A stretch of DNA of 64,000 nucleotides, taken from positions 472 through 64,471 of the forward strand of contig CAYXKT010000002.1 in assembly GCA_964465735.1 (NCBI GenBank), written 5' to 3'. The DNA comes from an uncultured bacterium. Its GTDB lineage: Bacteria; Auribacterota; Erginobacteria; Erginobacterales; Erginobacteraceae. Positions within the stretch are counted from its first letter, which is position 1. Every line of letters begins with the position of its first letter. Of this stretch, positions 2,362 through 30,340 are shown one piece after another. The notes beneath the pieces are model-generated. The model searched no databases and was not told where the DNA came from. It worked only from the letters and a program-made list of their open reading frames with translations. The translations under genes were made by a program, and so were the position numbers.

Positions 2362-2454
2362 AACCGGTAATTCGGACTCCGGTCCGGAATCCTATCAAAG
2401 CATTTCGTTGGTTTTATTAACTAATGTCTGGACGTAAACCCGATATCACGGAGA

Positions 2455-5004: not shown

Positions 5005-5165
5005 TACTATAGGTTCTACTCCAGCGGCTGTCTATCCTAACCCGCCGGATTTGAATAATATTTCATTGGTTCGGGAAAATACAGGTTGTGGTTTGTGGTG
5101 TAATCGATTAGAGATAAAACGGTTTTAAGAAGAACAAGTCGGCCAAGGGAGCACGCGAATTTAAT

Positions 5166-5879: not shown

Positions 5880-5880
5880 A

Positions 5881-6606
5881 TTGACGAATATATTCAGCAG
5901 GACTTTGATCGCTGTCGGCATCTTTGTCTCCGTGGGGGTTATCTGCCAAATCCTCTTCGAGCGCGCTGACCAGCCAGGCACGCCACGGCCCCGGATCGCC
6001 CCAGATCGACCACGGATAGAACCGCAGTCGGTGGAAAGCGGTGCCGCCCTGGAGAAGACCGCGAACTACCTGCGAAAAACCGCAACGCAGATAGTGTCGG
6101 GCTGGACCGAGACCGTGGACTTCTCCCACTCCGGCCACTATGATTCCTGAGACGGCAAAGTCCTATCCTGGTGGGAGTACAACGACCAGGACAAACAAAA
6201 GGTAATCTGGAAGTCGGCGCCCTGCCCGGAGAAGCGAACCACCACCCTGGTATTCAGCGGGGTCCTGGGGACTGCTGGAGGAGAAGCGAAACTTTGCGTC
6301 AACGGTCGCCCGGCTCTCTCTTTAAATACCGGGGTCGGACCGGCAACTGAAGAATGGGGAAGAGGAGACTACCACCTGAAGTTTTTCTCCATAGTCGTCA
6401 AACCAAACCAGGAACGGCTGGGGATCTTCGCTCTGAGCATACCGAAAGAAGATGTCACCTCCGGAGAGCCTATCACTCTGGAGGTAAGAGCGGAGGGGCT
6501 TTATAAGTCCGGTAACGGCAACAGATTTTTTCTGCTCAGTTCGATCCCCGAAATTTTAAAGAAACTGCCTCCAAAGAAGCAGGCCCTCGTCTCGTCCACC
6601 GTTCGA
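5881..6606 (+). CDS. Signal-anchored protein whose reading frame is interrupted by an in-frame TGA at 6148-6150 (readthrough, recoding, pseudogene or sequencing error)
   Basis: A TTG-initiated ORF 5881..6150 (89 aa, one TM) is followed in the same frame by 152 further sense codons ending at the TAA at 6604-6606. That stretch contains no ATG, GTG or TTG, so the downstream part has no start codon of its own. Confidence 0.35.
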
Positions 6607-6647
6607 TAACGGAAAGTTACCGGGAAAAACAAAAACTCCAAGATGAT

Positions 6648-8774: not shown

Positions 8775-9129
8775 ATTAACTGGCTATATCCGGATTTCCC
8801 AAAGCCTATTGGTAGCCTTAATCAATGCTGGAGGAGCGTTAGAGGCGGCTTTGAAAGTTCAGAGATAAACAGATTTTTGCTCAAAGTTAACATTCACAAC
8901 TCCTGATACGGGACATCGTTCTTCCCTCACAAAAGGGGAGATCGCCGATCAATCGCCAAAAGCAATTTCTGATCAATTCCCGAACAGCAACAGGTTACCT
9001 GCCGCCTTTTCCCGGGGAAAGTTCAATCTTCCGTGATGAATTCGAGCGGGCGGAAGCGAGAACCTTCCCGGGGAACTTGGGCCCGTCCGGTCGGCCTCCG
9101 GGGGATTATTGGGAAGCCGGAAGCTCCCG

Positions 9130-10314: not shown

Positions 10315-10457
10315 TTCTCCTTTTTACAGCCTAATTTTATCGGTTTCGGGTGCTTCCCGCGTTTTACATTATTCTCATCTCCTTCCCTCGCAGTCCGGCA
10401 ACCGCAATTGATTATCTCTTTCAACCAACCTCGAAAAAATTTTCTGGAACGGACGGA

Positions 10458-10688
10458 TTACCCGATCCAGCGATACAAGACCGCTGCGGACGAACGGCAA
10501 CCATTCATACCGCAGCAACCGCAGGAGCCGCCGCGGCATTCGATCCTCTCCTTCTCCACCGACCCCTTACGGGTCAGCATCTCCATCATCTTCTCCAGCG
10601 CCGATTCCTCGATGCTGAAACGGATCGCGAGGTCGGAGAGGGAGACGGAATCCCGTTCCTTGATCAATGCCTTAATTTCGCTCAGCAT
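10458..10688 (-). CDS. feoC: FeoC-like ferrous-iron transport regulator
   Basis: 76 aa lying directly downstream of feoB (3-nt gap). Winged-helix-like N-terminus plus the Cys cluster CRGGSCGCCGMNGC, as in FeoC. Confidence 0.55.
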   Translation of the reverse strand: MLSEIKALIKERDSVSLSDLAIRFSIEESALEKMMEMLTRKGSVEKERIECRGGSCGCCGMNGCRSSAAVLYRWIG

Positions 10689-10691
10689 TGT

Positions 10692-13001
10692 TCAGCCCGT
10701 CTTCTTTTGGCTCTTTTTTATCATTCCCAGGACAAAGACGATCAGGATCGCCGCCACCATTCCGATCCAGAACAGGGATGTCCCCGGATGGAGGCCGAAC
10801 CGCGCCACCTGGTAGAAGAGGGTCGAGGTCAGCCAGGCCAGGCCCGAAAGGTAAAGGGCGCTGAAGAGCGTCCACTGCCAGTTCAGCTCCCGGTAGACGG
10901 CGGCGATGGCAGCCACGCAGGGCATATAGAGCAAAATCATCAGGAGATAGGCGTAGGCCCCCGCCCGGCCGTCGAACCGCCTCGTCAGGGCCGAGGGGGT
11001 CGAGGTTTCGACCTCCAGTCCCGCGGCGGCTTTATCCAAACTGCCGTATTCCTCAACTTCCGCCCCCAGCAGTCCGGAGACCGAGAAGGGCAGGGTCAGC
11101 TCCGCCAGCGCGACCGGGATTGTCGCGAACGACTCCCCGATTCCTCCCCAGAAGTCGAAATTTTCTCCTTCGCCGGCCGCCGCTTCATCCGGACCGGCGT
11201 CGAGCCGGGAGTAGAGCGCGTCGAGCGTCCCGATCACCGCTTCCTTGGCGAAGATCCCGGTGAAGATGCCGACCGCGGCCGGCCAGTTGGATTCCTTCAT
11301 ACCCATCGGCTGAAATATCGGGACGATCCCCTTCCCGATCGCGCTCAGGATCGAGTTCTCGCTGTCCTCATTCCCGAAGGAACCGTCCGGGCCGAGGGAG
11401 TTGAGAAAGTTCAGGACGATCACCACCAGGATGATGACTTTCCCGGCCCGGAGCATAAACGCCTTCAGCCGGTCCCAGGTATGAAACAGGATCCCCCGGA
11501 GGGCGGGGATATGATAGGGCGGAAGTTCCATCAGGAAGGCGGAGGGTTTCCCCTGTAAGACCGTCCGGTTGAGCAGAACCCCGGTCAGGACGGCGAGAAC
11601 GATCCCCGCCAGGTAGAGCGAGAGCACCACCCAGCCCCCGATCCCGGGGAAGAACGCGGCGGCGAAGAGCGCGTAGACCGGCATCCTCGCCCCGCAGGAC
11701 ATAAAGGGGTTCATCATAATCGTCATCACCCGGTCCTTTTCACTCTCCAGCGTCCGGGTGGCCATAATCGCCGGGACGTTGCAGCCGAAACCGATCAGCA
11801 TCGGGACGAAGGATTTTCCCGGCAGGCCGATCGCCCGCATCAGCCGGTCCATCACGAAGGCGGCCCGCGCCATATACCCGGAGTCCTCCAGAAGGGAGAG
11901 GCAGAGGAAGATGAAGAAGATCGGCGGGATGAAGGTGGCCACGGTCTGGATCCCCCCGCCGATACCCCCGGCCAGCAGGGTGACCAGGAACCCGGGCGCG
12001 CCGATTTTCTCCAGGAGATTTCCGAAGCCATCGACAAAGATGGTCCCGGCGAAGCCGTCAAAAAAATCTATGAAACAGCCGCCGAGGTTGATGGTGGCCC
12101 AAAAGGTGAAGTACATCGCCGCCAGGAAGATCGGGATCCCTAAAAATCGGTTCAGAACCACCCGGTCGATAACGTCGCTCACCGTTTTGCGGACAACGTC
12201 CTTGCGGTCCACCGCCTTGCGGCAGACCGCGCTGATAAATCCGTAGCGACTGTCGGCGATGACGATATCGGTGTCCTCCCCGTTAACAGCCTCGATCCTC
12301 TTCCGGAGGCCGGGGACTATTTCCCGAACCGCCGCCGGAACCGCGAACTTTCCGGGATCGATATCCCCCTCCAGCAGCTTGACCGCCAGCCAGCGGGGGT
12401 CAAACTCCCTCCCCGCCGGATCGGCCGGAAGCCGGGCGATGATCTCCGTTATCGCCTCCTCGACCTCGGGGGGGTAGTAGATCTCCACCGAGGAGACCGG
12501 CCGGTCTTTTAGGCCTCGGTTGACGGCCGATTTCAGTTCGTCGATCCCCTCCCGCCGGGAGGCGACTATGGGCACCACCGGGCAGCCCAGAAGCCCGGCC
12601 AGCTCGTCCACCTTGATCTTGAGGCGCTTGACCCGGGCCAGATCGACCATATTCAGGGCGATCACCATCGGCACCTTCATCCCGATCAGCTGGGTGGTCA
12701 GGTAGAGGTTCCGCTCCAGGTTGGAGGCGTCAACGATGTTGACGATCAGCTCCGGCCGGTCCTGGAGGATATAATCGCGGGCGATCTCCTCGTCGAGCGA
12801 CGAGGTCGAGAGAGAATAGATCCCCGGGAGATCGACGACCTCGATCTCTTGGCCGTCGCGGGAATAGTTGCCGCTCTTGCGCTCGACGGTCACCCCGGGC
12901 CAGTTGCCGACCCGCTGCTTGCCGCCGGTCAGCGCGTTGAAGAGCGTGGTCTTGCCGCAGTTGGGGTTGCCGGCGATACCGATTCTGTATTTTTTGCTCA
13001 T
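10692..13001 (-). CDS. feoB: Ferrous iron transporter FeoB
   Basis: 769 aa. N-terminal G-domain motifs GNPNCGKTTLFNALTG and DLPGIYSL, followed by the polytopic membrane domain. GGGAGG ribosome-binding site 9 nt upstream. 4-nt overlap with feoA. Confidence 0.95.
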   Translation of the reverse strand: MSKKYRIGIAGNPNCGKTTLFNALTGGKQRVGNWPGVTVERKSGNYSRDGQEIEVVDLPGIYSLSTSSLDEEIARDYILQDRPELIVNIVDASNLERNLYLTTQLIGMKVPMVIALNMVDLARVKRLKIKVDELAGLLGCPVVPIVASRREGIDELKSAVNRGLKDRPVSSVEIYYPPEVEEAITEIIARLPADPAGREFDPRWLAVKLLEGDIDPGKFAVPAAVREIVPGLRKRIEAVNGEDTDIVIADSRYGFISAVCRKAVDRKDVVRKTVSDVIDRVVLNRFLGIPIFLAAMYFTFWATINLGGCFIDFFDGFAGTIFVDGFGNLLEKIGAPGFLVTLLAGGIGGGIQTVATFIPPIFFIFLCLSLLEDSGYMARAAFVMDRLMRAIGLPGKSFVPMLIGFGCNVPAIMATRTLESEKDRVMTIMMNPFMSCGARMPVYALFAAAFFPGIGGWVVLSLYLAGIVLAVLTGVLLNRTVLQGKPSAFLMELPPYHIPALRGILFHTWDRLKAFMLRAGKVIILVVIVLNFLNSLGPDGSFGNEDSENSILSAIGKGIVPIFQPMGMKESNWPAAVGIFTGIFAKEAVIGTLDALYSRLDAGPDEAAAGEGENFDFWGGIGESFATIPVALAELTLPFSVSGLLGAEVEEYGSLDKAAAGLEVETSTPSALTRRFDGRAGAYAYLLMILLYMPCVAAIAAVYRELNWQWTLFSALYLSGLAWLTSTLFYQVARFGLHPGTSLFWIGMVAAILIVFVLGMIKKSQKKTG

Positions 13002-13246
13002 CCGTCCGAACCTCCCATCTTTTCGACCTGAACCACCCCGGCCTCCTCCTTGCGGAGGCTAAGGCGGTAATCCTTCAGCTCGATCTCCACCGGATCGCCC
13101 AGGGGGGCCACCCTGGTGACGGTGAATTCCGTCCCCTTGATCAACCCCATAGGCAGGAGCCGGGCCCGGTAGCCTTTCTCGCCCGGCGCCAGGGCCGTCA
13201 CCCGGGCCCGGTCTCCCGGTTTTAAATCACCCAATGTCAAAGGCAT
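12998..13246 (-). CDS. feoA: FeoA ferrous iron transport protein
   Basis: 82 aa SH3-like FeoA (LGDLKPGDRARV...RLLPMGLIKGTEFTVTRVAPLGDPVEIEL). ATGA overlap with feoB. GAGGAGG ribosome-binding site. Confidence 0.85.
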   Translation of the reverse strand: MPLTLGDLKPGDRARVTALAPGEKGYRARLLPMGLIKGTEFTVTRVAPLGDPVEIELKDYRLSLRKEEAGVVQVEKMGGSDG

Positions 13247-13263
13247 CGTATTCCTCCTCTTCT

Positions 13264-13290
13264 ATTATAATTAATTGATTATCTTTATCA
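13264..13290 (-). promoter_or_regulatory. Fur-box-like sequence upstream of feoA-feoB
   Basis: On the minus strand: TGATAAAGATAATCAATTAAT, about 15 of 19 matches to GATAATGATAATCATTATC. Lies 17-40 nt upstream of the feoA ATG (13246), in an AT-rich intergenic region with a GAGGAGG ribosome-binding site. Confidence 0.5.
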
Positions 13291-13312
13291 GTTGTTCCGG
13301 AAAAAAATTTTG

Positions 13313-13636
13313 TCAGCCCAGAACTGACTGATCCCGGGGAAAACCCCGTCTCTCCTCCCGGACCATAACCTTGTTCGCCTCTCCCCTGCCGATGGCCAGG
13401 CGGGTATCCTTCACTTCGATAACAATCGGACCGCTGCCGGAGTTCCTGATCACCCGTAACGGCTCGCCCGGAAGCAACCCGAGCGCGGTCAGCCGTTTCT
13501 TGAAATGCCATCCGCCCTCGAGAGCGGCCAGCGTGACAAGATCGTCCTCACGGGCAAAGGTGACCGGGACGGTATTCCCGCGCGCGCGGATAACGCGGCT
13601 ATTACGCCGGTGAAAAGCAGAATTTCGATAGATCAT
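13313..13636 (-). CDS. feoA: Second FeoA-domain protein
   Basis: 107 aa. FeoA-like core (LAALEGG...KKRLTALGLLPGEPLRVIRNSGSGPIVIEVKDTRLAIGRGEA) directly upstream of feoA/feoB. Confidence 0.7.
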   Translation of the reverse strand: MIYRNSAFHRRNSRVIRARGNTVPVTFAREDDLVTLAALEGGWHFKKRLTALGLLPGEPLRVIRNSGSGPIVIEVKDTRLAIGRGEANKVMVREERRGFPRDQSVLG

Positions 13637-14593: not shown

Positions 14594-16819
14594 CTATTTC
14601 GGGGATAAACCGGACTGGTCTATAATCAGGGGTTTCCCTTCGATCAGGAAGTAGTAACCGGCCGGTTGGCCGTCGAGACCAAGCAATTCTCGCGGTTGGT
14701 CCGGGAGAGCGAATTCTTCCATCACTTTCCGGATGGCGTCCCGGTTGGAAACAACCCCGATCACCGCGGCCGCCTGCCCCGTCTCCTTATGTTCCTTCAG
14801 GAACTCTCTCATTCCATCCTCCCCGGCCCGGTATTGCCGCCAGGGGTCGGGCACTACCTCCCGGTAGTCGTAATAACGGTTGATGGTAGTACGATGACGG
14901 TGAAGTCGTCCGGTGGCGGAGTAGCTGAGAAAATCCACCACCCGGCCCAGCCCAAGCTGGGTCATAATACGGGGACAATGGATAGAAAGGCGGTAGCCTT
15001 CCTGAAGCAGGGTGTCAGAGAGCCGGCCGATCGCGGTCTGGTCGGGCTCCCGGCGGTTGAAGAACCGCTCCAGACCGAAGAGAGCGATTACCGACAGAAA
15101 AGCTGTCAGGAACAGAACCCCGCAGCCGAACGGCAGTTTTCGCAGTCGGCCGGGAAAGATATCGGTCAGCGCCCGGCCGGTCTCCTGAATGAACGCCCCG
15201 GCCAGGAGGGCGGCCAGGGGAATGCCGAGAATGAGATGCCGGGGAACCGACCCGATCGGCCGAACCAGAATCATAAACGGGCCCAGGGCCGGAACCAGCC
15301 AGAGAAGGAGGACGGCCCCCCGGGTCCGCTTCCAGTTGCCCAGGCTCCAGCCCAACCCGAGCAGGGCCAGAAGGAAGGAGGCCCGGTTGAGCAGCCCCCT
15401 TCTCGGGGGATAAGTAAAACTCCCCGAATCCCGGGCCCGGCAGAGGTTCCGGTAGAGAATATCCAGGTTCTCCATTAACTGGCCGGGGATCAGTTCCCAG
15501 CGGATCGACATATCCGCCCGGGATTGGCTGCCGATAAAGGGGTAGATGCTCCCCCCCTTGGAGCTGGTGTAGGCGGTATCGGCCACCATCTGGATATCCC
15601 CGGCCTGGATTATGAAGAAGACCGCGAAGACGGCGCCGAAGGCCGCCATCTTGGCCCAGTCGCGGCGAAAAAATCCCCGGTAGAAAATGCTCCGGTGAAT
15701 CAGAACCGCCGCCGCCAGGGGGACCAGAAACCGGGTTGGAAGATAAAAGAAGTGGTTAAAACTCAGCAAAAATCCAAGGGCCAGGTAGATGACGATCCGC
15801 CCGCTCCGGACGGCTTTCAGGAGCAGGAGGAGAACCAGCAGAGTAAAGGCAATGCTCATACTCCCGAACATCCCGGCCCGATAGATGGTCAGATGCCAGG
15901 GCGAAAAGGTGAGCAGCACCCCCGCCGTTATCCCCGCCGTCTCCCCGATCAGGCTTCTCCCCAGCAGATAGATAAGAAAAACACTCACCACCGCCCAGAA
16001 GACGGAACTGGCCCGAAAGACCACCAGGTGGACCCCGCCCAGCCGCATCAGAAAGGCCGCCGGGATGGTGAAGAGCGCCGAAGTGGACGAGTCGGCCCCA
16101 TAGGAACGGGGAAAATAGCTCCAGATCATCTCCCGGGTCGGCTGACTGCCCTCCAGGAACTGGACCGCGGCCAGGGCATTGGTAGCCTCGAACTCGTCGA
16201 ACCGAGGGTTGCGATCCAGGGCGTGAAAACCGATGGCCAGGTTCAGGACCATCAGGATCAATAACACCGGGAGGACAGAAAGGAGCCAACGCTTCCTCTC
16301 CATCGCCTGCTTCCTCTTCCCCCAAACCGCGCCCAGCAACGCGGTCAGAACCGCCACCAGGTAAAACCAGCGGGCGGAGGCGTTGTCTTTTCCGGTGATC
16401 AGCATCTCCGCCCGAACCCCGGAGAGCAGGGCGAGGGCATACCAGAAAAAAGCCGGCCGGCCTCGGGTCAGGGCAAACAGACCCAGTAGCAGGAAGAGGA
16501 CCGCCCCCCCCACGATCAGGTTAGCCGAGTGGGCTAAAAAATACTCCTGGAGGAGATGGGCCGCTTTCCACGCCTCCCGGAGGATGGGTTCGAGAGAAGG
16601 AAGAGAACCGCCGGGGTAAAAGGCGGTCCGTTTGGCCTGGTTAAGCACCAGGGCGAAACTCAGCCCAAAGAGCAGCACCCCCCCAACGACCAAAAGAATC
16701 GCTCCTCTGATCCAGGCAGTTTTCCCCCGGCGAAGGAACAGCCCCACTATGATCAAAACTAACCCGATCAGGGCCGGAACAAAGAGCGGGTTATCAATCA
16801 AACCGGGAGTGGCGGACAT
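14594..16819 (-). CDS. GT-C fold integral-membrane glycosyltransferase (ArnT/PMT-like)
   Basis: Polytopic membrane protein of about 740 aa (TLLVLLLLLKAVRSGR..., SPWHLTIYRAGMFG loop) directly downstream of a soluble GT2 polyprenyl-P-sugar synthase. I set the start at the ATG 16817-16819 (GAGGAGAG 5 nt upstream). The ORF-track start at 16951 would overlap the upstream gene by 120 nt. Confidence 0.55.
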   Translation of the reverse strand: MSATPGLIDNPLFVPALIGLVLIIVGLFLRRGKTAWIRGAILLVVGGVLLFGLSFALVLNQAKRTAFYPGGSLPSLEPILREAWKAAHLLQEYFLAHSANLIVGGAVLFLLLGLFALTRGRPAFFWYALALLSGVRAEMLITGKDNASARWFYLVAVLTALLGAVWGKRKQAMERKRWLLSVLPVLLILMVLNLAIGFHALDRNPRFDEFEATNALAAVQFLEGSQPTREMIWSYFPRSYGADSSTSALFTIPAAFLMRLGGVHLVVFRASSVFWAVVSVFLIYLLGRSLIGETAGITAGVLLTFSPWHLTIYRAGMFGSMSIAFTLLVLLLLLKAVRSGRIVIYLALGFLLSFNHFFYLPTRFLVPLAAAVLIHRSIFYRGFFRRDWAKMAAFGAVFAVFFIIQAGDIQMVADTAYTSSKGGSIYPFIGSQSRADMSIRWELIPGQLMENLDILYRNLCRARDSGSFTYPPRRGLLNRASFLLALLGLGWSLGNWKRTRGAVLLLWLVPALGPFMILVRPIGSVPRHLILGIPLAALLAGAFIQETGRALTDIFPGRLRKLPFGCGVLFLTAFLSVIALFGLERFFNRREPDQTAIGRLSDTLLQEGYRLSIHCPRIMTQLGLGRVVDFLSYSATGRLHRHRTTINRYYDYREVVPDPWRQYRAGEDGMREFLKEHKETGQAAAVIGVVSNRDAIRKVMEEFALPDQPRELLGLDGQPAGYYFLIEGKPLIIDQSGLSPK

Positions 16820-16830
16820 AACTTCTCTCC

Positions 16831-17619
16831 TCAGACTTCCCCGTCCCGATAAGCCGCGCTCTGCCGACGCCCGCGGAGAAATAATATTCGCAGGTAACCC
16901 CGGGCGGTCCGGATGATTTTCATCTTGCTCTTTCCCTGCCGTCGGGACCAATCAACCTTGAATTCAACCTCGGAGATGGACAGACGCAGCTCGACCATCT
17001 TGTAGAGCAACTCCACCATACATTCAAAACCCGGACTCTCAACGATCCCGGGACCGAAAACTTCCTGGAGCCGGAGAATAGCTCCACCCCGGAAAAGCCG
17101 AAAAAAACTACTGAAAGTATTGAGCCCCCCCAAGCCAAGACCGACCTTGACCAGGGCGTTGGCCAGATGACTGATCAGGAGCCTGAAGGTCGAGACCTCA
17201 GAAAAGCCGCCCCCATAAGTATAGGGACTGGCCAGAACGACATCGTAACCTTCCCGGATCCGGACCAGCATCCGGGAGAGGGTCTCCAATCCGGAAGTAT
17301 TATCAGCTTCCAATGTCGCCACCAGATCGTTTCTCCGCAGACTCCTCGAAAGCCGGGAAAAAGCGGCGGCAAAGGAACGGCCAGGGCCAAGATTGCGGAC
17401 GTTGGTAATAAGATCGCAGCTCAGGCTGGACCCCTGTTGGCGGATGATATCCCCTCCCCGATCCGAACTCCCATCGTCCACAGCCAGGACCCGAACCCGG
17501 TACCGGGGATGATTGGCGGCAAATTTTTCGATCTCTGAAAGTAACCGGGGAAGATTGGGGGCCTCATTATAAAAGGGAAAGACCAGATAGAGACACTGAG
17601 CAGCGGAAGAATCAGTCAC
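16831..17619 (-). CDS. GT2 polyprenyl-phosphate glycosyltransferase (Dpm1/ArnC/GtrB-like, soluble form)
   Basis: 262 aa. LYLVFPFYNEAPNL, VLAVDDGSSD and the DxD region. No C-terminal TM helices. 8-nt overlap with the upstream epimerase gene. Confidence 0.7.
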   Translation of the reverse strand: MTDSSAAQCLYLVFPFYNEAPNLPRLLSEIEKFAANHPRYRVRVLAVDDGSSDRGGDIIRQQGSSLSCDLITNVRNLGPGRSFAAAFSRLSRSLRRNDLVATLEADNTSGLETLSRMLVRIREGYDVVLASPYTYGGGFSEVSTFRLLISHLANALVKVGLGLGGLNTFSSFFRLFRGGAILRLQEVFGPGIVESPGFECMVELLYKMVELRLSISEVEFKVDWSRRQGKSKMKIIRTARGYLRILFLRGRRQSAAYRDGEV

Positions 17620-18598
17620 GGTTCCCCTCCCGCACCGCCTTGATGGTCATCTTCAGGGCGTCTTCAAAGGAAACCTGCGGGTGGTAGCCTAAGATTTCCT
17701 GGGCCCTGGTCAGATCCGGACACCGCCGAGTTATGTCCCGATACCGGCCGAAAACTTCGGAGAAAGGTATAAACTTCAGTTTCAAATCCTTCCCGGTGGC
17801 GGCCAGCCGGTGAATTATCCGAGCGGCCTTGACGACGCTGACCTCCTCGGTATTGCCCAGGTTGATGATATTCCCCACCGCCGCCGGCTGCTCCATCGCC
17901 AACACCGTTCCCCGCACCAGGTCAGAGACATAAGCCATTGAGCGGGTCTGGCTGCCGTCGCCGTGGATCACCACTTCCCGGTCATTGAGGACCGCCCGGA
18001 CAAAGATCGGGATATGCCCCCCCGACCACTGAAAACTGGAACGGGAGCTAAATCCTCCGAAATATCTCAAGACCACCACCGGCAGTCCGTACTGCTGGTG
18101 ATAACCAAAGGCCAGCTGTTCGGCGTAAAGCTTGGAGACGGCGTAACTCCAGCGTTTGATCATACTCGGCCCGATCAACAGGTCCCCATCCTCCTGGAAA
18201 GGGAGATCGGGGGACATCCCGTAAACATCGGAGGTGGAGGCGAAGATTACCTTGGCGCCGGTGGAGCGGGCCGCTTCCAAAACATTCTCGGTCCCCCGGT
18301 TATTGACCAGCAGGGTGGGAAGTCGGAAGTCCTTCTCCCCGATCTTCTTCACCGCCGCCAGATGGACTATGGTCTGCACATCGCGGGCAAGTTCCCGGAC
18401 CAGACCGCTATCGAGGACATCCCCCTGAACAAACCGGGAATTGGGATCATTCCGCCAACGGGCGATATTCTCCAACCGGCCAAAACTCAGGTTATCCAGA
18501 CCGATAACCCGGTAATTACCGCTCTCCAAGAGAGTGTCGAGAAGATGAGAACCGATCATCCCCGCCACCCCGGTTATCAGGATCTGTTTCTTGCTCAT
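17612..18598 (-). CDS. NAD-dependent sugar-nucleotide epimerase/dehydratase (extended SDR)
   Basis: 328 aa. Rossmann motif ILITGVAGMIGSHL. Catalytic YAVSK (YxxxK). Typical UDP-sugar epimerase/decarboxylase length. Confidence 0.8.
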   Translation of the reverse strand: MSKKQILITGVAGMIGSHLLDTLLESGNYRVIGLDNLSFGRLENIARWRNDPNSRFVQGDVLDSGLVRELARDVQTIVHLAAVKKIGEKDFRLPTLLVNNRGTENVLEAARSTGAKVIFASTSDVYGMSPDLPFQEDGDLLIGPSMIKRWSYAVSKLYAEQLAFGYHQQYGLPVVVLRYFGGFSSRSSFQWSGGHIPIFVRAVLNDREVVIHGDGSQTRSMAYVSDLVRGTVLAMEQPAAVGNIINLGNTEEVSVVKAARIIHRLAATGKDLKLKFIPFSEVFGRYRDITRRCPDLTRAQEILGYHPQVSFEDALKMTIKAVREGNRD

Positions 18599-18810: not shown

Positions 18811-18883
18811 ATAATACTATCTTAGTCTGGGTAAAGCAAAAATAAATCGTTGAGAAAGATAACCCGAGGAAGACGACTACCGG

Positions 18884-19777
18884 TTGACAATTCGGGGTCC
18901 GTTCTCCTATTATACAAGTATGAAAGATATTTCTGTCATTATACCGGCTTACAACGAAGAGGCGGGGATCGGGCAAGTGCTGGCGGAGGTGGAGGAAGTT
19001 ATGCGGGGTAGCGGACTTGACTTCGAGATCATCGTGGTCAACGACGGGTCGACCGACCGGACAGCGGAGATTGTCCAGAAGACCGGAGCGGTTCTCCTGG
19101 AGCAGCCGGCCAACCGGGGCTACGGGGCCTCGCTGAAGCTGGGGATCCATCGGGCGAAGTTCGAACGGGTCCTGATCCTGGACGCCGATGGAACCTACCC
19201 GCCGGAAGCGATCCCCCGGTTGCTGGAAAAAGCCGATGACTTCGAGATGGTAGTGGGGTCCCGAACCGGGGAGAACGTTGCCATCCCGGCCTTCCGGCGG
19301 TTCCCCAAATGGCTGCTGAAGAAGCTGGCGGATTACCTGGTGGGGATGAAGATACCCGACCTCAACTCCGGGCTGCGGATCTTCCGGAAGTCGGCGGCGG
19401 AAAAATTTCTTCCCATCCTCCCCGACGGCTTCTCCTTCACGACCACGATCACGGTCGCCTTCCTTTCCAGCAGTCTTCCGGTACACTATGCCCCGATCGA
19501 CTACTACAAGCGTTCCGGGCGTTCCAAGTTCCGCCCGCTTCAGGATACCCTCAATCTTTTAAACCTGATCATCCGGACCAGCCTCTACTTCAACCCCCTG
19601 AAGATCTTCGTCCCTGCCGGCACCTCCCTGCTGGTGGCCGGGTTGGCCCTTCTGGTCCACCGGCTGATCGCCGGGGGGGGAGGGATGGTAACCACGGTGG
19701 TATTGCTGATGGCCGGACTCCAGCTCCTCGCCCTGGGGTTGCTGGCCGACCTGATTGATAAAAGATCCTCCCAATGA
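18884..19777 (+). CDS. GT2 polyprenyl-phosphate glycosyltransferase (ArnC/Dpm1/GtrB-like, membrane-anchored)
   Basis: ISVIIPAYNEEAGIGQVL, IIVVNDGSTD, LDADGTYPPE, and two C-terminal TM helices. The start is either the TTG at 18884 (GAGGAAG 11 nt upstream) or the ATG at 18920 (MKDISVII). Confidence 0.8.
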   Translation: MTIRGPFSYYTSMKDISVIIPAYNEEAGIGQVLAEVEEVMRGSGLDFEIIVVNDGSTDRTAEIVQKTGAVLLEQPANRGYGASLKLGIHRAKFERVLILDADGTYPPEAIPRLLEKADDFEMVVGSRTGENVAIPAFRRFPKWLLKKLADYLVGMKIPDLNSGLRIFRKSAAEKFLPILPDGFSFTTTITVAFLSSSLPVHYAPIDYYKRSGRSKFRPLQDTLNLLNLIIRTSLYFNPLKIFVPAGTSLLVAGLALLVHRLIAGGGGMVTTVVLLMAGLQLLALGLLADLIDKRSSQ

Positions 19778-21195
19778 AGGTTCTTCTGATCAACCCGCCC
19801 CGGGAGAATGAACTGACCGGGAACAATCCGGCCCTGATCGACGAAAGCCGGGGATATAACCCACCCCTGGGTCTGCTTTATCTGGCCGGCTACCTGGAAG
19901 CAAAAACCTCTTATCAAGTCGTGATCTGCGACGCGCAGGTTGAGGAGATCTCCTACCCGCAACTGGGAGAGCGGATCCGGGAGGCCGCGCCCGACCTGGT
20001 CGGACTGACCGCGATGACCTTCACTCTCCTTGACGTGATCAAAACCGCTCGGCTGGTCAAGGAAATCTCCCCTTCCCTGCCGGTGATGGTCGGCGGGGTC
20101 CACGCCTTTCTCTACCCGGAGGAGACCGTTAACCTCCCTGAGATTGATTATGTCTTGAGCGGTGAGGGAGAAGAGAGTTTCGCCCTTCTCCTGGACCGGC
20201 TGGAGAATCAGGGCGACCTCAATACCGTTCCCGGCCTGACCTACCAGAAAGACGGCCGGATCTGTTCCAGCCCAGCCCCGCCGCTCTGCGCCGATCTCGA
20301 CTCCCTCCCCTTCCCCGCGCGGCAGCTCACTCCCTGGCAAAAATACAGTTCGGTGATGGCCAAACGGCAGCCGATCACCACGATGTTCACCAGTCGGGGC
20401 TGTCCCTTCCGCTGCTCCTTCTGCGCCCGCCCCCACCTGGGAAAACAGTTCCGCTACCGTTCGGCTGAAAACGTGGTCGATGAGATGGAAGAGTGCGTAA
20501 AGTTGGGGATCCAGGAATTTCTGATCTACGATGACACCTTCACCGTCAACCGCGACCGGGTGCTGGCGGTCTGTGAGGAGATCCGCCGCCGGAAGCTGGC
20601 GATCGGCTGGGATATCCGGGCGAGGGTGGATTGTGTGGACGAAGAGATGCTAAAGCAGCTTAAAGCCACCGGTTGCGAACGGATCCACTACGGGGTGGAG
20701 GCGGGGACGGAGAAGATTTTGCGGGTCCTGAACAAGGGAATCACCAGGAAACAGGCTCGGGATACGATCGCCCTGACCCGGCAGATCGGGATCGAGACTC
20801 TGGCCTACTTTATGATCGGATCCCCAACCGAGACCCGGGAGGATATCCTGACAACAATCCGGTTCGCGCTGGAGCTGAAACCGGACTTCGTGCATATTAC
20901 TATCCTCTGTCCCTTTCCAGGGACCGCAATCTATGAGCAAGGACTAAAGGAAGGCGTCTTCTCCCGGGACCACTGGCGGGATTTCGCCGCCAACCCGACC
21001 CCCGACTTCTCCCCGCCTTACTGGAATGAGCTTCTCTCTGATACCGAGCTACAGGAACTCTTGCAATTAGCCTATAAAAAATTCTATACTCGCCCGTCTT
21101 ATCTCCTGAAAAGAGCTCTCCAGGTCAGATCTCTGCGGGAGTTTAAAACCAAGTTCAATGCCGGCTGGAAAATTTTCCGGATGAAAAATCGGTAA
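19774..21195 (+). CDS. Cobalamin (B12)-binding radical SAM enzyme (class B)
   Basis: 473 aa. N-terminal B12-binding/Rossmann-like region. CxxxCxxC radical SAM motif in TSRGCPFRCSFCARP. ATGA overlap with the upstream GT2. Confidence 0.8.
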   Translation: MKVLLINPPRENELTGNNPALIDESRGYNPPLGLLYLAGYLEAKTSYQVVICDAQVEEISYPQLGERIREAAPDLVGLTAMTFTLLDVIKTARLVKEISPSLPVMVGGVHAFLYPEETVNLPEIDYVLSGEGEESFALLLDRLENQGDLNTVPGLTYQKDGRICSSPAPPLCADLDSLPFPARQLTPWQKYSSVMAKRQPITTMFTSRGCPFRCSFCARPHLGKQFRYRSAENVVDEMEECVKLGIQEFLIYDDTFTVNRDRVLAVCEEIRRRKLAIGWDIRARVDCVDEEMLKQLKATGCERIHYGVEAGTEKILRVLNKGITRKQARDTIALTRQIGIETLAYFMIGSPTETREDILTTIRFALELKPDFVHITILCPFPGTAIYEQGLKEGVFSRDHWRDFAANPTPDFSPPYWNELLSDTELQELLQLAYKKFYTRPSYLLKRALQVRSLREFKTKFNAGWKIFRMKNR

Positions 21196-21416: not shown

Positions 21417-23474
21417 ATGGCGAAGAAACGGAAAATACGGCCGGAGGCGACGACCCCGGCAGCGATATCTTTTAAGTACCGGCCGACGGCAAAGAAAATT
21501 ATCACCGGCCTCTTTCTGCTGGCAGTGGTTCTCTCTTTCTTTCTCCGATTCTACGACCTGGAACTTAAGCCACTCCACCACGACGAGGGGGTCAACTCCT
21601 GGTTCTTGCTCAACCTGAAAGCTGACTTCCCCGGCGGCTGGACCTACGACCCCTCAAACTATCACGGGCCCTTCCTCTTCTTCACCCATATCATTCCCCT
21701 GGCCATTTACGAAAGCGTCTTTTCGCTACGCTGTATGGTGGCCCTCTTCGGCTCCCTGACCATCTGGCTCCTCTGGCCGCTGCGGCGAAAAATCGGCCGG
21801 GTCGGGGTAACGGCGGCCGCCTTTCTCCTCGCCATCTCTCCCTCCCATCTCTTCTTCTCCCGGACCAACATTCACGAAATTTACCTGGTCTTTTTCACCC
21901 TGGGGACAGTGGTCGGGATTGTCCGACTCTGGGAGACTAAGAAACCAATTTATCTGATCCTGGCCGTCGCCTGCTGGGCCTGGGTGATCACGGTCAAGGA
22001 GACCTACATCATCACCGCCGGGTCCTGGTTCTGGGCCGCAGTCGGGACCTACATCTGGTTCTCCATCACCCGCCGGAATGACGAAATTCCACCCAAATAC
22101 GCGGCCCGAGAAATGGGGGGGTGGCTGAAGACTCACTATGCGGCGATCTGGTTAGCGGCGGGAGTCTTCGTCCTGATTATCATCATCTATTATTCCTCCC
22201 TCTTCACCAGCCTGAAAGGAACCACCAGCGATCTGATCGAAAGCCTGATGATCTGGCAGAAGACCGGGACCAAGGGTGCCGGACACGAGAAACCTTTCTT
22301 TTACTGGTGGTGGCTGCTGCGGGACTTTGAGCTACCGATCTTCATCATCGGGGTCCTCGGACTCGCTCTGGCGACAGTCCGGAGAAACGCCTTTGCCGTC
22401 TTCTGTGTCATCTGGGCGGTAGTGATGTTTTTAATCCATTCCTCAATCGCCTACAAGACCCCCTGGCTGGCGCTTAACTTTATGCTTCCCCTGGTTCTCC
22501 TGGCCGGTTTCTTCTGCGAGCAGCTTTATCGTTCTCTGAGAAAGACCCCGGTACTGGCCGGGGCGGCCGGAGTCATCTTCGCCGGTGGACTTCTGGCCTG
22601 GGGGACCGGGATCAGCCGGACAGTCAATTTCATCGAATACGACGATGATCGCCATATGATCGTCTATTCCCAGACCCGACGCGACCTCAACGACCTGGTC
22701 GCGGCGATCGAGGAGTACGCCCACGAGCAGGGCCAGGGCTACACCACCGAGATCAAGATCGTCTCCGACGAGTACTGGCCGCTCCAGTGGTATTTAAGGG
22801 AATATCCCCGGGTAGGTTTCTGGGGAAAGGTGCTCCCCGATTCCGATGGACCGATCGTGATCGGCCGTTCCACCACCCGGAACGAACTGGAAAAAGTTCT
22901 CCAGGACACCTACTCCTCCGAACTCTACAGTGTCCGGCCGGGGCTGGATCTTTATCTCTACACCCGCCTCCACCGGGGGAGAGTCCCGAAAGAAGAACTC
23001 CCGGCCCCGGAGCCGATGGGGATAACAAAGGCTGATCTCCAACCGGGACTGGTCGGCAGTTACTTCAACAAGGTTAATCCGGTCGGCCGGGCCGACGATA
23101 CCCGGATTGAGGATCAGTTTGAATTTCACTATAACAGCCCGGCGGAGACCAGGGCCGGGCTCGGGTTTTCGCCGCCCTTAAGCATTCTCTGGGAAGGAAT
23201 AATCGAGATCCCCCGGGCAGGGACCTATGTTTTTGCCACCGAGTCCGACGACGGCTCCTGGATCTTTATCGGCGAGCGGCAGGTAGTCGATAACGGCGGG
23301 GCCCACGCAATGCAGTATCGCTCCGGAGAGATCACCCTGGAGGAAGGGTTTTATCCACTGAAGATCAAGTACTTCGAAGTCGGCGGCGGGGCGGTCCTCA
23401 AGGTCTTCTGGTCCCCCCCGGGGGAGAGCGAGGAGCCGATCCCTCCCGGGCGCCTCTTCCACCAGAAACGGTAA
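21417..23474 (+). CDS. Polytopic membrane protein (GT-C-like, LKPLHHDEGVNSWF motif) fused to a C-terminal PA14 carbohydrate-binding domain
   Basis: 685 aa. About 11 TM helices in the N-terminal 400 aa. The C-terminal 145 aa (GLVGSYFNK...DDGSWIFIGERQVVDNGGAH...GFYPLKIKYFEVGGGAVLKVFWSPPG) matches the PA14 domain pattern. The PA14 part spans about 23040-23474. Confidence 0.6.
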   Translation: MAKKRKIRPEATTPAAISFKYRPTAKKIITGLFLLAVVLSFFLRFYDLELKPLHHDEGVNSWFLLNLKADFPGGWTYDPSNYHGPFLFFTHIIPLAIYESVFSLRCMVALFGSLTIWLLWPLRRKIGRVGVTAAAFLLAISPSHLFFSRTNIHEIYLVFFTLGTVVGIVRLWETKKPIYLILAVACWAWVITVKETYIITAGSWFWAAVGTYIWFSITRRNDEIPPKYAAREMGGWLKTHYAAIWLAAGVFVLIIIIYYSSLFTSLKGTTSDLIESLMIWQKTGTKGAGHEKPFFYWWWLLRDFELPIFIIGVLGLALATVRRNAFAVFCVIWAVVMFLIHSSIAYKTPWLALNFMLPLVLLAGFFCEQLYRSLRKTPVLAGAAGVIFAGGLLAWGTGISRTVNFIEYDDDRHMIVYSQTRRDLNDLVAAIEEYAHEQGQGYTTEIKIVSDEYWPLQWYLREYPRVGFWGKVLPDSDGPIVIGRSTTRNELEKVLQDTYSSELYSVRPGLDLYLYTRLHRGRVPKEELPAPEPMGITKADLQPGLVGSYFNKVNPVGRADDTRIEDQFEFHYNSPAETRAGLGFSPPLSILWEGIIEIPRAGTYVFATESDDGSWIFIGERQVVDNGGAHAMQYRSGEITLEEGFYPLKIKYFEVGGGAVLKVFWSPPGESEEPIPPGRLFHQKR

Positions 23475-23616
23475 CTCAAAGCGAACCTTTCGGGGCCCGC
23501 CAGGAAAGTTGATCTCACTTGACACCGGGACTGAAGATCGGGTATCTTTTAATATCTATGGTTGTTTGCCTGAAACCAATTCCGGAGCCCCCACATTCGG
23601 GGAAAAGGAGGAACAG

Positions 23617-24213
23617 ATGCGGATAAAATCATCGAACAGGGCCAAGCGGTTGGCAACAGTTATCCTGACCGCGATCTTTTTCTCCATCGGACTGGGGGGG
23701 TGCCAGGAAACGGGACCGGAGGCTACAACCATTGATGTCGAGAAAATTATCGACTTTACCGGGGTCATCTCGATTACCCTGCCTTCCGGGGAGACCACCC
23801 GGCTCGCTGTCGGCCAGACCCTGATCCCTCTTCCCGCGGATACTCTGGTCGAGATAGTCTCCGGAGAGTCCACCGGGATGCTGGCGGGAAAGATCATTCT
23901 CCTCCGGGAAGATCAGGTTGCCCGGATCATCCGGCCGGGGGTGACCGCCCACCACGTGATCCGTTTCACCGGGGAGTTGAAGATCGTCCTCCCCGACGGC
24001 ACCGTGATCTTCGTTAAGGAGGGGGATCCTCTGCCCATCCTCCCTGCCGGAACCCGGATCGAGGTGATCTCGGGCGAACTGGTAGTACTCTGGGGCGACG
24101 AGCGGATTACCCTGGTCGCCGGCAATGTCGCCTGGATCGAGTTGCGGCCCAAAGACCGACTGTTGGAACTGGAGAGAGGCGACATCAGCCCGGCCAGCCC
24201 GTTTAGACCTTAA
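23617..24213 (+). CDS. Lipoprotein with an internal duplication (two repeats of about 50 aa)
   Basis: Start ATG 23617 with AAGGAGG 6 nt upstream (the ORF-track start at 23509 is less likely). Lipobox LGGC in MRIKSSNRAKRLATVILTAIFFSIGLGGC. Repeats I.LP.G....G..L..LPA.T..E..SGE occur twice. Confidence 0.5.
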   Translation: MRIKSSNRAKRLATVILTAIFFSIGLGGCQETGPEATTIDVEKIIDFTGVISITLPSGETTRLAVGQTLIPLPADTLVEIVSGESTGMLAGKIILLREDQVARIIRPGVTAHHVIRFTGELKIVLPDGTVIFVKEGDPLPILPAGTRIEVISGELVVLWGDERITLVAGNVAWIELRPKDRLLELERGDISPASPFRP

Positions 24214-28607: not shown

Positions 28608-29579
28608 TTGGAGAACGGGTATTTGCAGATGGAAACCACTGACGATAGCTTGAACCGGGAAGAAACCCCATACCAATGCCCGTATTTTGATAACCGGGAT
28701 TGTCCACGTTATTGTCTGGATTTTATTTTTTACCAGAACCCGGAAACAACGACGGCCCTGGGAAGGTGTCCCCGGTTCGAAGATTCATACGTTCTCTTCT
28801 CCACCCCCGCCACCGGTTTGAAGGATTACTACGATCCGAAAAGATTGCAGGAGTATTGTTCCTACTACGAACCATTCCGCCGGAGGCGTTTTCACGAGAT
28901 ATTCCGGATCTCCACCCTGCGAAATTTCCCCGGAAACTCCGCTCTTGATATCGGCTGCGGTTTCGGCTGGTTCTTGGAAGAGTTGCATAGTCGGGGATGG
29001 AAACGATTGGTCGGCATAGATTACTCTCCCGTCAGCCACCGGGACAACGGGAAAGGTCTGGAGATCATCAACGAGAAGTTCAGTCCAACGCTGGAACTGG
29101 AGGAAAGATTCGACCTGATCATCCTCTCCAATGTCCTGGAACATCTCTGGCAGCCGCTGGATTGCCTGCGCTGGATCAGGAACCACCTCCGCCAAGAGTC
29201 CGGCGGTCTCCTGCTCCTGGTAGTCCCCACGGCGGACGGGATGCTGATGCGGTTATCCCACCGGTTTATCCAAGCTTTCCCCCGCCTCTCCGATGGAATG
29301 GTTGAGGATATATACCAGATCGGCAGCACGATGGGGCACCGGGTCCTTTACACTACTGCCGGGGTGATCAAGCTTTGCCGGATGGCCGGACTGACCGTCC
29401 TGGACCGGGAAGAAACCCCGATCATAGACGCCGGAAACATCAGGCAACGAATGTTGATCGAAAAGGACCACCTGACCGGGTCGGATCACCTGAAGGCTTT
29501 CCTGCTGGAGCGACTGTCCCGGCTGGCCTCCCGGAGAGGGGAGAACGATGAACTGGCTCTGGTCTTAACCCCCGCTTGA
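28608..29579 (+). CDS. Class I SAM-dependent methyltransferase with an N-terminal Cys-rich region
   Basis: SAM motif I LDIGCGFGWFLEEL. Post-I acidic residue in GIDYSP. Motif LIILSNVLEHL. N-terminal CPYFDNRDCPRYC. Confidence 0.7.
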   Translation: MENGYLQMETTDDSLNREETPYQCPYFDNRDCPRYCLDFIFYQNPETTTALGRCPRFEDSYVLFSTPATGLKDYYDPKRLQEYCSYYEPFRRRRFHEIFRISTLRNFPGNSALDIGCGFGWFLEELHSRGWKRLVGIDYSPVSHRDNGKGLEIINEKFSPTLELEERFDLIILSNVLEHLWQPLDCLRWIRNHLRQESGGLLLLVVPTADGMLMRLSHRFIQAFPRLSDGMVEDIYQIGSTMGHRVLYTTAGVIKLCRMAGLTVLDREETPIIDAGNIRQRMLIEKDHLTGSDHLKAFLLERLSRLASRRGENDELALVLTPA

Positions 29580-30340
29580 TGATCAACGTGATGAAACCGA
29601 AACAGGATATACAGGCGGAACAGGAGTTTTTCGCGGGTCCGATGGAGAACTTTGAACCCTTCGACTGGCGGGCCAAGGAACTGCTTTACTTCTGGCTCTC
29701 ACGGCGAAACCGTCCCGCCACTGACAGCCTGATCCTCGACCTGGCCGCGGGCAGCGGCAACTTCACCAAAGTCCTCCTGGCCCGCGGTCACCGGGTGGTC
29801 GGGTTCGACATCGCCCACAACCTGATCCGCACCCTCCGCGAACGGACCGGCCTGCGGCAGGTCTTCGTCGGGAGAGCGGAGGAGATCGCCCTGGATTCCG
29901 ACTCTTTTGACCTGGTGACGATGTGCGGGGTTCTCCACCATTTCCCGGACATCCTGCCCCTCCTGGAGGAGATAGCCCGGGTACTGAAACCCGGTGGGTC
30001 GTTCTTCGCCATCGAGCCCAACCTCCATAACCCCTGGATGTTTCTCTTCCGGTCCCCCTCCAGCCCGCTGTACATACCCGAAGGAGTGACCCGGAACGAA
30101 CGGCCGCTGAGCCGGCGGGAACTGGATACCGCCCTGGCCCGGGTCTTCCCCCGCCGGCTGGTGGAGGGCATCTGTGGGGTTACCTTTCTCAAGTCGGGGA
30201 CGGTTCTCGATCCCCTGCTCTCGGGTTTTAACCTCTATTCCCGCCTGATGGGCAAACTCCTACCCCGGTCCCGCTGGGGCGAGTTCCTGATCTGCTCCGG
30301 CTGGAAGGGATCACAACCAACCATCGCCGACCGGATATGA
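29576..30340 (+). CDS. Class I SAM-dependent methyltransferase
   Basis: ILDLAAGSGNFTKVL, VVGFDIAHN, FDLVTMCGVLHHF, LKPGGSF. ATGA overlap with the upstream methyltransferase. Confidence 0.7.
   Translation: MMINVMKPKQDIQAEQEFFAGPMENFEPFDWRAKELLYFWLSRRNRPATDSLILDLAAGSGNFTKVLLARGHRVVGFDIAHNLIRTLRERTGLRQVFVGRAEEIALDSDSFDLVTMCGVLHHFPDILPLLEEIARVLKPGGSFFAIEPNLHNPWMFLFRSPSSPLYIPEGVTRNERPLSRRELDTALARVFPRRLVEGICGVTFLKSGTVLDPLLSGFNLYSRLMGKLLPRSRWGEFLICSGWKGSQPTIADRI

Follow-up and report, generated by a model that had tools for sequence, protein, structure and literature searches.

Systems that combine a glycosyltransferase family 2 (GT2) synthase, a flippase, and a GT-C-type membrane protein decorate lipid A, O-antigens, teichoic acids, and the glycoproteins of S-layers and adhesins. 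Named examples include ArnC/ArnD/ArnEF/ArnT, GtrB/GtrA/GtrC, CsbB/GtcA/YfhO, PgfS/PgfM, and Agl22/Agl23. In the Arn pathway, ArnD edits the lipid-linked sugar between the GT2 and GT-C steps, and we know of no edits of a sugar while it is borne by such a lipid other than simple hydrolytic ones, the ArnD deformylase being an example. Here, we describe a stretch of 64,000 nucleotides, hereafter called the window, from an uncultured bacterium of the Erginobacteraceae (phylum Auribacterota; GenBank assembly GCA_964465735.1, contig CAYXKT010000002.1, positions 472 to 64,471 of the forward strand). It encodes a radical S-adenosylmethionine (SAM) enzyme of 473 amino acids with a B12-binding domain (19774–21195, plus strand, ATG start), which belongs to an unnamed orthogroup and directly follows a GT2 gene. 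The window resembles the three-component systems in having a GT2 of the ArnC/GtrB/DPMS class and a GT-C-type membrane protein within a surface-polysaccharide locus. It differs from them in having a radical SAM enzyme placed between synthase and consumer and probably coupled to the synthase.

Cobalamin-dependent radical SAM enzymes with lipid-linked substrates are few and difficult to study. GenK, GenD1, and MoeK5 methylate unactivated sugar carbons, MoeK5 doing so on a sugar linked to a lipid phosphoglycerate. Compared by description rather than by sequence, all three have the same class B architecture as the window enzyme, but they serve antibiotic pathways and not polyprenyl-phosphate carriers. 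The closest known arrangement, and by analogy the nearest mechanistic one, is the hopanoid gene order hpnI–hpnJ–hpnK followed by a gene for an LPG_synthase_TM protein (the position of HpnI upstream of HpnJ being that in Mycetohabitans). HpnI and HpnJ offer a precedent for a GT2 and a B12 radical SAM enzyme that work on a lipid-linked sugar (PMC13459092). As in the window, the GT2 gene directly precedes the radical SAM gene; the GT2 makes a lipid-linked hexosamine that serves as the substrate, and HpnJ is proposed to contract its glucosamine ring (PMC13459092; PMC9204698). The window pair departs from this arrangement in that its GT2 is ArnC/GtrB-like rather than HpnI and no HpnK or hopanoid genes accompany it; its likely acceptor lipid is polyprenyl phosphate instead of a hopanoid.

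Neither a radical SAM enzyme that acts on polyprenyl- or dolichyl-phosphate sugars nor the present pairing with a GT2 is described in the literature searched, which included reviews of B12 and lipid-related radical SAM enzymes and left most subscription-journal papers outside. The pair recurs in at least 17 phyla of bacteria and archaea, the organisms being mostly uncultured, suggesting an undescribed chemical edit of sugars carried on lipids to the cell surface. That the enzyme tailors the lipid-linked sugar made by its partner GT2 is, judged from sequence, somewhat probable. C-methylation would be the favored form of this tailoring, although as a specific assignment it is itself somewhat unlikely.

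Conservation of the GT2–radical SAM gene pair

The window enzyme has thousands of homologs. The nearest named one (86% identity) comes from Ca. Erginobacter occultus, a member of the Auribacterota in the PVC group. Scanning one genome per species recovered 241 stretches with a relative, and the best 80 of these (52–86% identity) were kept as loci, individually designated by L numbers. Nearly all of the loci are from metagenome-assembled genomes (MAGs), and their open reading frames (ORFs) were called mechanically. The 80 loci span at least 17 phylum-level labels across bacteria and archaea. The bacterial labels are PVC/Auribacterota, Chloroflexota, anammox and other Planctomycetota, Nitrospira, Actinomycetota, Acidobacteriota/Aminicenantes, KSB1, Pseudomonadota, Chitinivibrionales, Verrucomicrobiota, Eisenbacteria, Omnitrophota, Thermodesulfobacteriota, Myxococcota, Muiribacterium, and several members of the Candidate Phyla Radiation (CPR)/Patescibacteria. 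Archaea are represented by Woesearchaeota and Methanosarcinales.

The first-pass annotation, made from the letters of the window, had named conservation of genomic context as a check on the pairing. Upstream sequence of 1 kb or more is available for 74 loci, and 59 of these have an orthologous GT2 (41–83% identity to the window GT2) immediately upstream on the same strand. The reverse look-up gave the same picture: three GT2 orthologs, taken from the GT2 search for lying on long contigs outside the radical SAM match list, all have a B12 radical SAM gene adjoining or one gene away. The same annotation had reasoned that the co-localization would be incidental if orthologs were consistently found in unrelated contexts, such as hopanoid or bacteriochlorophyll loci. 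No homologs of HpnI, HpnK, or BchJ were found in the window or in the 80 loci (tblastn E <= 1e-4 for HpnI and HpnK), which rules out a hopanoid or bacteriochlorophyll context.

The two genes also lie very close together. Of 61 pairs, 26 have the radical SAM start −4 nt from the GT2 stop (the commonest value), 8 have a spacing of −1 nt, and 46 fall in the range from −4 to +11 nt. A wider separation of ~0.7 kb is seen in six pairs and, where its content could be identified, it holds one small inserted gene; in L008, L010, and L040 the product is a methyltransferase, and in L066 and L071 it belongs to the nitroreductase family. A seventh gapped pair, L004, has 312 nt between the genes. Pairwise identities of the GT2 and radical SAM proteins co-vary over 57 pairs (Pearson 0.895, Spearman 0.55, Mantel 0/999 permutations). 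Because adjacency and near-zero spacing hold across phyla, the arrangement is far beyond chance. The GT2 and radical SAM genes form a conserved, co-inherited two-gene cassette that, from the spacing of the reading frames, is probably translationally coupled.

The nitroreductase-family flavoprotein of CPR genomes lies between the GT2 and radical SAM genes at 9331–9999 in L066 and 9277–9999 in L053, with the same position in L071. Its best NCBIfam match is BluB, at 79 bits and under the cut-off, and it might be a reductant or partner enzyme.

Domain architecture and predicted structure of the radical SAM enzyme

The window enzyme consists of an N-terminal B12-binding (Rossmann) domain and a radical SAM core. 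The former (residues 21–139; nucleotides 19834–20190, plus strand) matches PF02310 at 88.7 bits against a cut-off of 32.1, and the latter (residues 206–365; 20389–20868, plus strand) matches PF04055 at 100.1 bits against 29.5. Within the core, the cluster motif C210-x3-C214-x2-C217 (20401–20424; core letters GCPFRCSFC) lies inside GCPFRCSFCARP (20398–20433), and its three cysteines are unchanged in all alignments built, including those with orthologs, HpnJ, and BchE. These domains and the CX3CX2C motif assign the enzyme to the class B type of radical SAM enzymes, in agreement with the first reading of the sequence, which had noted a CxxxCxxC motif and an N-terminal B12-binding region. Cobalamin dependence is predicted as probable. 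A search for a paralog within the window ended in rejection, since the two ORFs of 471–473 amino acids at 41179–42594 and 50616–52037 encode a Wzx-type flippase and an FG-GAP protein, respectively.

An AlphaFold2 model of the enzyme built from 19 homologs (predicted local distance difference test score, pLDDT, 85.7; predicted template modeling score, pTM, 0.87) has AprD4, MgmA/QCMT, TsrM, and CysS as its closest folds, with TokK and OxsB matched as well. The best structural match is AprD4, a radical SAM 1,2-diol dehydratase of apramycin biosynthesis that binds no cobalamin and yet falls inside the B12 radical SAM similarity network (PMC12931638). By this comparison, the window enzyme could carry out a cobalamin-independent 1,2-diol dehydration leading to deoxygenation, or else a radical epimerization, with the Rossmann domain retained as a structural relic. 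AprD4 does act on a sugar, and the CPR flavoprotein described above could serve as a reductase partner for such a reaction. We nevertheless regard this alternative as quite unlikely. AprD4 is only 23–24% identical to the window enzyme, and the sequence match is confined to residues 147–394, leaving out the N-terminal domain. That domain has its own strong PF02310 match and aligns by sequence with two cobalamin-binding enzymes, the alignment beginning at residue 37 for OxsB and at residue 72 for TokK. In addition, the NCBIfam AprD4 model reaches 139.5 bits against a cut-off of 500, and no AprD3-like reductase is consistently tied to the pair.

Relationship to named radical SAM families

No NCBIfam class B model attains its cut-off on the window enzyme. 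The best score belongs to BchE (TIGR02026), the anaerobic cyclase of Mg-protoporphyrin IX monomethyl ester, at 237.9 bits or half of its cut-off of 481.35, followed by HpnJ (TIGR03471) at 212.5 against 577.6 and ApyD at 203.7 against 750. BzaD (154.5 bits, cut-off 450), PhpK (147.3, cut-off 600), HpnR (142.9, cut-off 650), and QCMT (141.7, cut-off 360) score lower. The three top models represent a cyclase, a ring-contracting enzyme, and a C-methylase, so homology leaves the chemistry undecided. The ranking was also tried as a test of methylase against non-methylase and discarded, as it does not discriminate: ApyD, close behind the other two, is a C-beta-tyrosine methylase (ApyD paper).

Phylogenetic placement gives a clearer separation. 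In a neighbor-joining tree (Kimura distances, 42 sequences, 472 columns, 200 bootstraps), 97.5% of replicates recover the orthogroup as monophyletic, with HpnJ and BchE elsewhere. A homolog from a Solidesulfovibrio plasmid (38% identity to the window enzyme), which also follows an ArnC/PgfS-type GT2, is its sister with 87% bootstrap support. Pairwise identity within the orthogroup is at least 48%, whereas annotated HpnJ and BchE sequences, both taken from plasmids, share 29% and 30% identity with the window enzyme. Among the sequences obtained, the orthogroup is thus resolved as a clade distinct from HpnJ and BchE. Placement among characterized class B enzymes had been suggested at the outset with GenK, Fom3, TsrM, and BchE as references; it stands with respect to BchE and HpnJ, in a tree drawn without GenK, Fom3, TsrM, MoeK5, and Cds sequences, for which any comparison was by way of NCBIfam models or PDB entries.

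Many database entries of the orthogroup are labeled BchE. The window enzyme has the two-domain architecture of BchE, but BchE carries a C-terminal extension and lies in a separate clade, whereas the window enzyme has no bch context and is surrounded by glycan genes. On these sequence comparisons, the BchE names given to orthogroup members in metagenome annotations are misannotations. If the role proposed below is correct, it would provide a function for a large family now misannotated as "BchE" or "YgiQ".

HpnJ is also 473 amino acids long and is collinear with the window enzyme from end to end, with no large indels. A reaction of the HpnJ/Cds type, for which mechanisms have been set out (PMC13459092), would convert the pyranose of the GT2 glycolipid into a carbocyclic, cyclitol- or calditol-like unit, giving an acid-stable head group rather than a glycosyl donor. 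This alternative is unlikely. The HpnJ model does give the second-best NCBIfam score, and the hpn operon includes an LPG_synthase_TM protein, a type that also occurs near the pair in eight loci; moreover, the known non-methylating cobalamin radical SAM enzymes all form or rearrange rings (PMC13598231). However, the window enzyme is no nearer to HpnJ than to BchE, the HpnJ score is far under its cut-off, and HpnJ falls in another clade. The partner GT2 is of the ArnC/GtrB type, and no locus contains HpnI or HpnK homologs. A phospho-cyclitol without an anomeric center would be useless as a donor to the GT-C proteins that are enriched beside the pair, which favors an edit that preserves the donor. 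Some loci combine methyltransferases with two or three different B12 radical SAM enzymes, which likewise looks like multi-step tailoring rather than ring contraction.

Lipids are another conceivable target. B12 radical SAM enzymes that modify lipids are known, among them the glycerol dialkyl glycerol tetraether (GDGT) ring synthases and a ladderane candidate (PMC13598231, PMC9204698), and the family studied here occurs in anammox bacteria. Still, a role in modifying the polyprenyl carrier or some other membrane lipid, for example of ladderane or tetraether type, is most improbable, as is an incidental position beside the GT2. The enzyme reaches 140.3 bits on the ladderane model TIGR04072 (cut-off 360), and its family is pan-phylum, extending far beyond anammox bacteria into CPR and DPANN; a ladderane role for the anammox copies was rejected on these grounds. 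The loci are of the glycan-assembly type, with Wzy, priming phosphoglycosyl transferases (PGT), GT4s, and Wza/Wzc, and not of the lipid-synthesis type. Incidental adjacency is excluded by the 59 of 74 pairs, the three of three reverse look-ups, and the co-divergence of the two proteins. We infer that the sugar is a better-supported target than the polyprenyl chain.

The partner GT2 and the gene junction

The GT2 gene (18920–19777, plus strand) encodes a GT-A domain followed by a C-terminal hydrophobic hairpin. The protein matches Glycos_transf_2 (PF00535) at 107 bits. Its five top NCBIfam models, AglJ (126.6 bits), DolP-hexose transferase (99), ArnC (88.5), PpgS (82.7), and PgfS (69.8), are all polyprenyl-phosphate (Pren-P) or dolichyl-phosphate (Dol-P) sugar synthases, with every score under its cut-off. 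Compared by sequence with the PDB, it is closest to ArnC, aligned over the full length at E 2e-22, with DPMS and GtrB coming next, and its C-terminus consists of two hydrophobic segments, as in Pren-P and Dol-P sugar synthases. These matches place the GT2 in the ArnC/GtrB/DPMS/AglJ class, that is, among enzymes of the polyprenyl-phosphate sugar synthase type; they stop short of the equivalog level, which would specify the sugar and the lipid (AglJ 126.6 bits against a cut-off of 325).

The ATGA overlap reported in the first-pass annotation (19774–19777, plus strand) can be read directly from the junction at 19771–19780, cccaATGAag, in which the radical SAM ATG (19774–19776) overlaps the GT2 TGA (19775–19777). 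The relatives named above likewise bear out its description of the GT2 as a polyprenyl-P-sugar type.

The longest ORF of the GT2 opens at TTG 18884. Because GT2 orthologs are mostly 285–286 amino acids long and ATG 18920 gives a protein of 285, the start is probably ATG 18920 rather than TTG 18884. A promoter-like candidate, TTGACA-18 nt-TATTAT (18884–18913, plus strand), lies just 5′ of this probable start and fits 11 of 12 consensus positions. Its −35 hexamer coincides with the nominal TTG start, and ATG 18920 is 6 nt past its −10 box and could be a near-leaderless start. For the alternative start at TTG 18884, GAGGAAG at 18866–18872 is a candidate ribosome-binding site.

Recurrent neighbors of the pair

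Neighbor families were defined by clustering all locus ORFs de novo. Of 81 loci, 24 have class I SAM methyltransferases no more than 1 kb from the enzyme, often overlapping the radical SAM stop, and their density is 1.7 per 10 kb within that distance compared with 0.10–0.28 further out. Large polytopic proteins of GT-C size, taken as those with at least 450 amino acids and at least eight transmembrane segments by a crude hydropathy rule, have a density of 2.2 per 10 kb up to 1 kb from the enzyme compared with 0.24–0.94 further out. The polytopic family varies by lineage: Agl23-like proteins with a PA14 domain accompany the pair in the window and its PVC relatives, PMT_2 proteins in one Chloroflexia genome, and YfhO/PTPS_related proteins in Methanosarcinales and Woesearchaeota, while Brocadia has three kinds of PA14-bearing membrane proteins nearby. 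Flippase-like LPG_synthase_TM proteins occur within a few kb of the pair in eight loci and immediately after the enzyme in L068, L074, and L079. PGTs, Wzy-like polymerases or ligases, and GT4s are further recurrent neighbors.

No nucleotidyltransferase or nucleotide-sugar-modifying enzyme is consistently tied to the pair in these loci, and a short-chain dehydrogenase/reductase (SDR) is found in only ~10 of them, which fits an edit made after the sugar has been transferred to the lipid. The reverse order, in which the enzyme acts ahead of the GT2 on a nucleotide sugar and makes an unusual donor for the GT2 to load, is very unlikely, since the GT2 alone is conserved with the enzyme. Reaction order is not set by gene order, and radical SAM enzymes that act on nucleotide sugars are known, DesII being one. 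The SDR epimerase/dehydratase found near the pair in the window might also point in this direction, but it is part of a minus-strand unit of its own, together with a second GT2 and a PMT_2 protein, that is kept in L001. The tight overlap with the GT2 stop instead suggests stoichiometric co-production of the radical SAM enzyme with a membrane enzyme.

Several loci contain one or two extra B12 radical SAM genes in tandem. These belong to other subfamilies (30–38% identity), so each locus has one ortholog of the window enzyme. One such conserved subfamily forms its own clade at 34–36% identity to the window enzyme and stands in tandem with the ortholog; it is found at 3673–5097 in L088, at 11423–12844 in L073 (Omnitrophota), and at 11486–12901 in L061 (Woesearchaeota). 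A 27-kb plasmid of the pathogen Lawsonia intracellularis (L084) carries a glycan locus (1619–13365) with two radical SAM genes, three GT2s, GalE, and two DUF2304 proteins. The locus also has a row of seven coding sequences annotated as class I methyltransferases, two short ones of which may be fragments of a single gene. One of its radical SAM proteins groups with HpnJ and shares 27% identity with the window enzyme.

Proposed role in surface glycosylation

The pair may act in a route of three steps. In the first, the GT2, working at the cytoplasmic face, would load polyprenyl phosphate with a common nucleotide-activated monosaccharide, as its homology to ArnC, GtrB, DPMS, and AglJ suggests. 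In the second, the soluble B12-domain radical SAM enzyme would functionalize a C–H bond of the lipid-linked sugar, leaving it usable as a glycosyl donor. In the third, the edited Pren-P-sugar would be flipped and then used by a GT-C enzyme on an extracytoplasmic glycan or glycoprotein of the Wzx/Wzy locus, a step suggested by synteny. In the window, the third enzyme would be the Agl23-like protein, whose PA14 lectin domain may bind the carbohydrate acceptor. The cassette most likely belongs to such a three-component surface-glycosylation route, and its features suggest lipid-carrier glycosylation of this kind with an added radical SAM member. By analogy, the radical SAM enzyme would occupy the position that ArnD holds in the Arn pathway.

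For the second step, cobalamin-dependent C-methylation is favored, with deoxygenation or epimerization as alternatives. It is favored because cobalamin-dependent radical SAM enzymes are mostly methylases (PMC13598231) and because class I methyltransferases accompany two or three distinct B12 radical SAM enzymes in some loci, a combination that resembles multi-site tailoring. A further reason is that MoeK5, a lipid-linked sugar C-methylase, co-clusters with HpnJ in a similarity network (PMC9204698).

Several points weigh against the proposed tailoring. An adjacent orthologous GT2 is absent in 15 of the 74 testable loci, and by the crude hydropathy count only 46 of 81 loci have a GT-C-like protein no further than 3 kb away. 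The co-divergence of the GT2 and radical SAM proteins could arise partly from shared species phylogeny, and action on a nucleotide sugar ahead of the GT2 could account for the same gene order. Cobalamin binding by the window enzyme is itself a prediction; because the best structural match, AprD4, lacks cobalamin, the fold alone cannot settle the matter.

In its broadest form, the proposal is that the orthogroup is the first radical SAM family, probably cobalamin-dependent, to edit a polyprenyl-phosphate-linked monosaccharide. It would supply a C-branched or otherwise rare donor to GT-C enzymes from a horizontally mobile, coupled cassette that reaches CPR and DPANN among its 17 or more phyla, and it could lie behind unidentified methylated sugars, the 174-Da unit of the anammox S-layer O-glycan being one example. 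We put this forward tentatively, with rather less than even confidence. That O-glycan contains a methylated N-acetylhexosamine (HexNAc) together with the 174-Da unit (PMC5088730). Members of the family occur in Brocadia, Scalindua, and related anammox genomes, Kuenenia not being among the 80 loci, and a link between the family and the 174-Da unit is a lead only.

If the tailoring reading is correct, radical chemistry would join the ways in which cell-surface sugars are built, from Planctomycetota and Chloroflexota to CPR, DPANN, and methanogenic archaea (48–86% identity). The GT2 and the radical SAM enzyme make up a compact two-gene system in which the enzyme is soluble and its presumed substrate could be made by its own partner GT2, offering a practical entry point.

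The Agl23-like protein and the surrounding locus

The gene order in the window is synthase, radical SAM enzyme, and Agl23-like protein. The last of these (21417–23474, plus strand) is a GT-C-like polytopic membrane protein with a C-terminal PA14 domain (approximately nucleotides 23040–23447), corresponding to the GT-C/PA14 protein first noted after the radical SAM gene. It passes the Agl23 model TIGR03663 at 226 bits (cut-off 126.25, residues 33–464) and has Pfam matches to PMT_2 (34 bits) and PA14 (62 bits). PA14 structures are matched too, and the PA14 domain is an addition relative to the Agl23 model. In Haloarcula, the synthase Agl22 and Agl23 make and use or flip hexose-P-dolichol, and flippase activity has been reported for Agl23 itself (PMC11182771). 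From this similarity, the Agl23/PA14 protein is a probable flippase and/or consumer of the lipid-linked sugar. The window thus contains both a GT2 and a GT-C-like protein; no small GtrA/ArnEF-type flippase was seen in it, and flippase-like TIGR00374 proteins occur in eight other loci.

An Agl23+PA14 gene lies immediately 3′ of the enzyme in L002, L003, L005, L007, L009, L011, and L086/L087, and no more than ~1.1 kb away in L004 and L006. This immediate downstream placement is a trait of the PVC lineage; elsewhere, the pair has other GT-C types or none. The 221-nt gap between the radical SAM and GT-C genes has no plus-strand terminator, no Rfam match, and a folding z of −0.63, and a regulatory RNA or terminator was rejected at this site. 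No B12 riboswitch was found in the window.

Upstream of the pair, on the minus strand, lies a divergent module (14594–18598) consisting of an SDR sugar epimerase/dehydratase (17612–18598), a second GT2 (16831–17619) that is 24% identical to the first, and a PMT_2 GT-C protein (14594–16951). The module is kept as a block in Ca. Erginobacter (L001) at 72–85% identity. Two Pren-P-sugar modules therefore stand back to back in the window, the divergent one being context outside the conserved pair.

The window as a whole is a large Wzx/Wzy-type exopolysaccharide locus encoding Wza, a Wzc-like kinase, a BBP2 porin, Wzx, Wzy, several GT4s, and a carbamoyltransferase, along with at least five methyltransferases and at least four GT-C proteins. 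GT-C or other large polytopic proteins are encoded at 130–2361, 6648–8774, 14594–16951, 21417–23474, and 30337–32133; at least four have PMT_2 or Agl23 matches, and one of the large polytopic proteins, of 598 amino acids, has no Pfam match. The methyltransferases, of the Methyltransf_11/23 and FkbM types, are scattered, with locations including 28608–30340, 46066–46821, and 54436–56057. Their spread through the locus suggests that the polysaccharide is heavily methylated. The methyltransferase at 29576–30340 was considered as a part of the GT2–radical SAM module and rejected, as it is 31% identical over 110 amino acids to the families that abut the enzyme in other loci and lies 8 kb away.

Between the GT-C/PA14 gene and the BBP2 porin, an ORF at 23509–24213 encodes a protein of 234 amino acids with a lipoprotein-like signal (…GLGGC) and no Pfam match. 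It is kept at the same place in the PVC relatives L002–L005, at 55–70% identity. Toward the end of the window, an ORF of 2616 amino acids with SBBP beta-propeller and FG-GAP repeats occupies 56051–63901 on the minus strand, and two FG-GAP proteins of ~460 amino acids are encoded at 50616–52037 and 52527–53900. These are presumably surface or adhesin-like proteins lying beside the polysaccharide locus.

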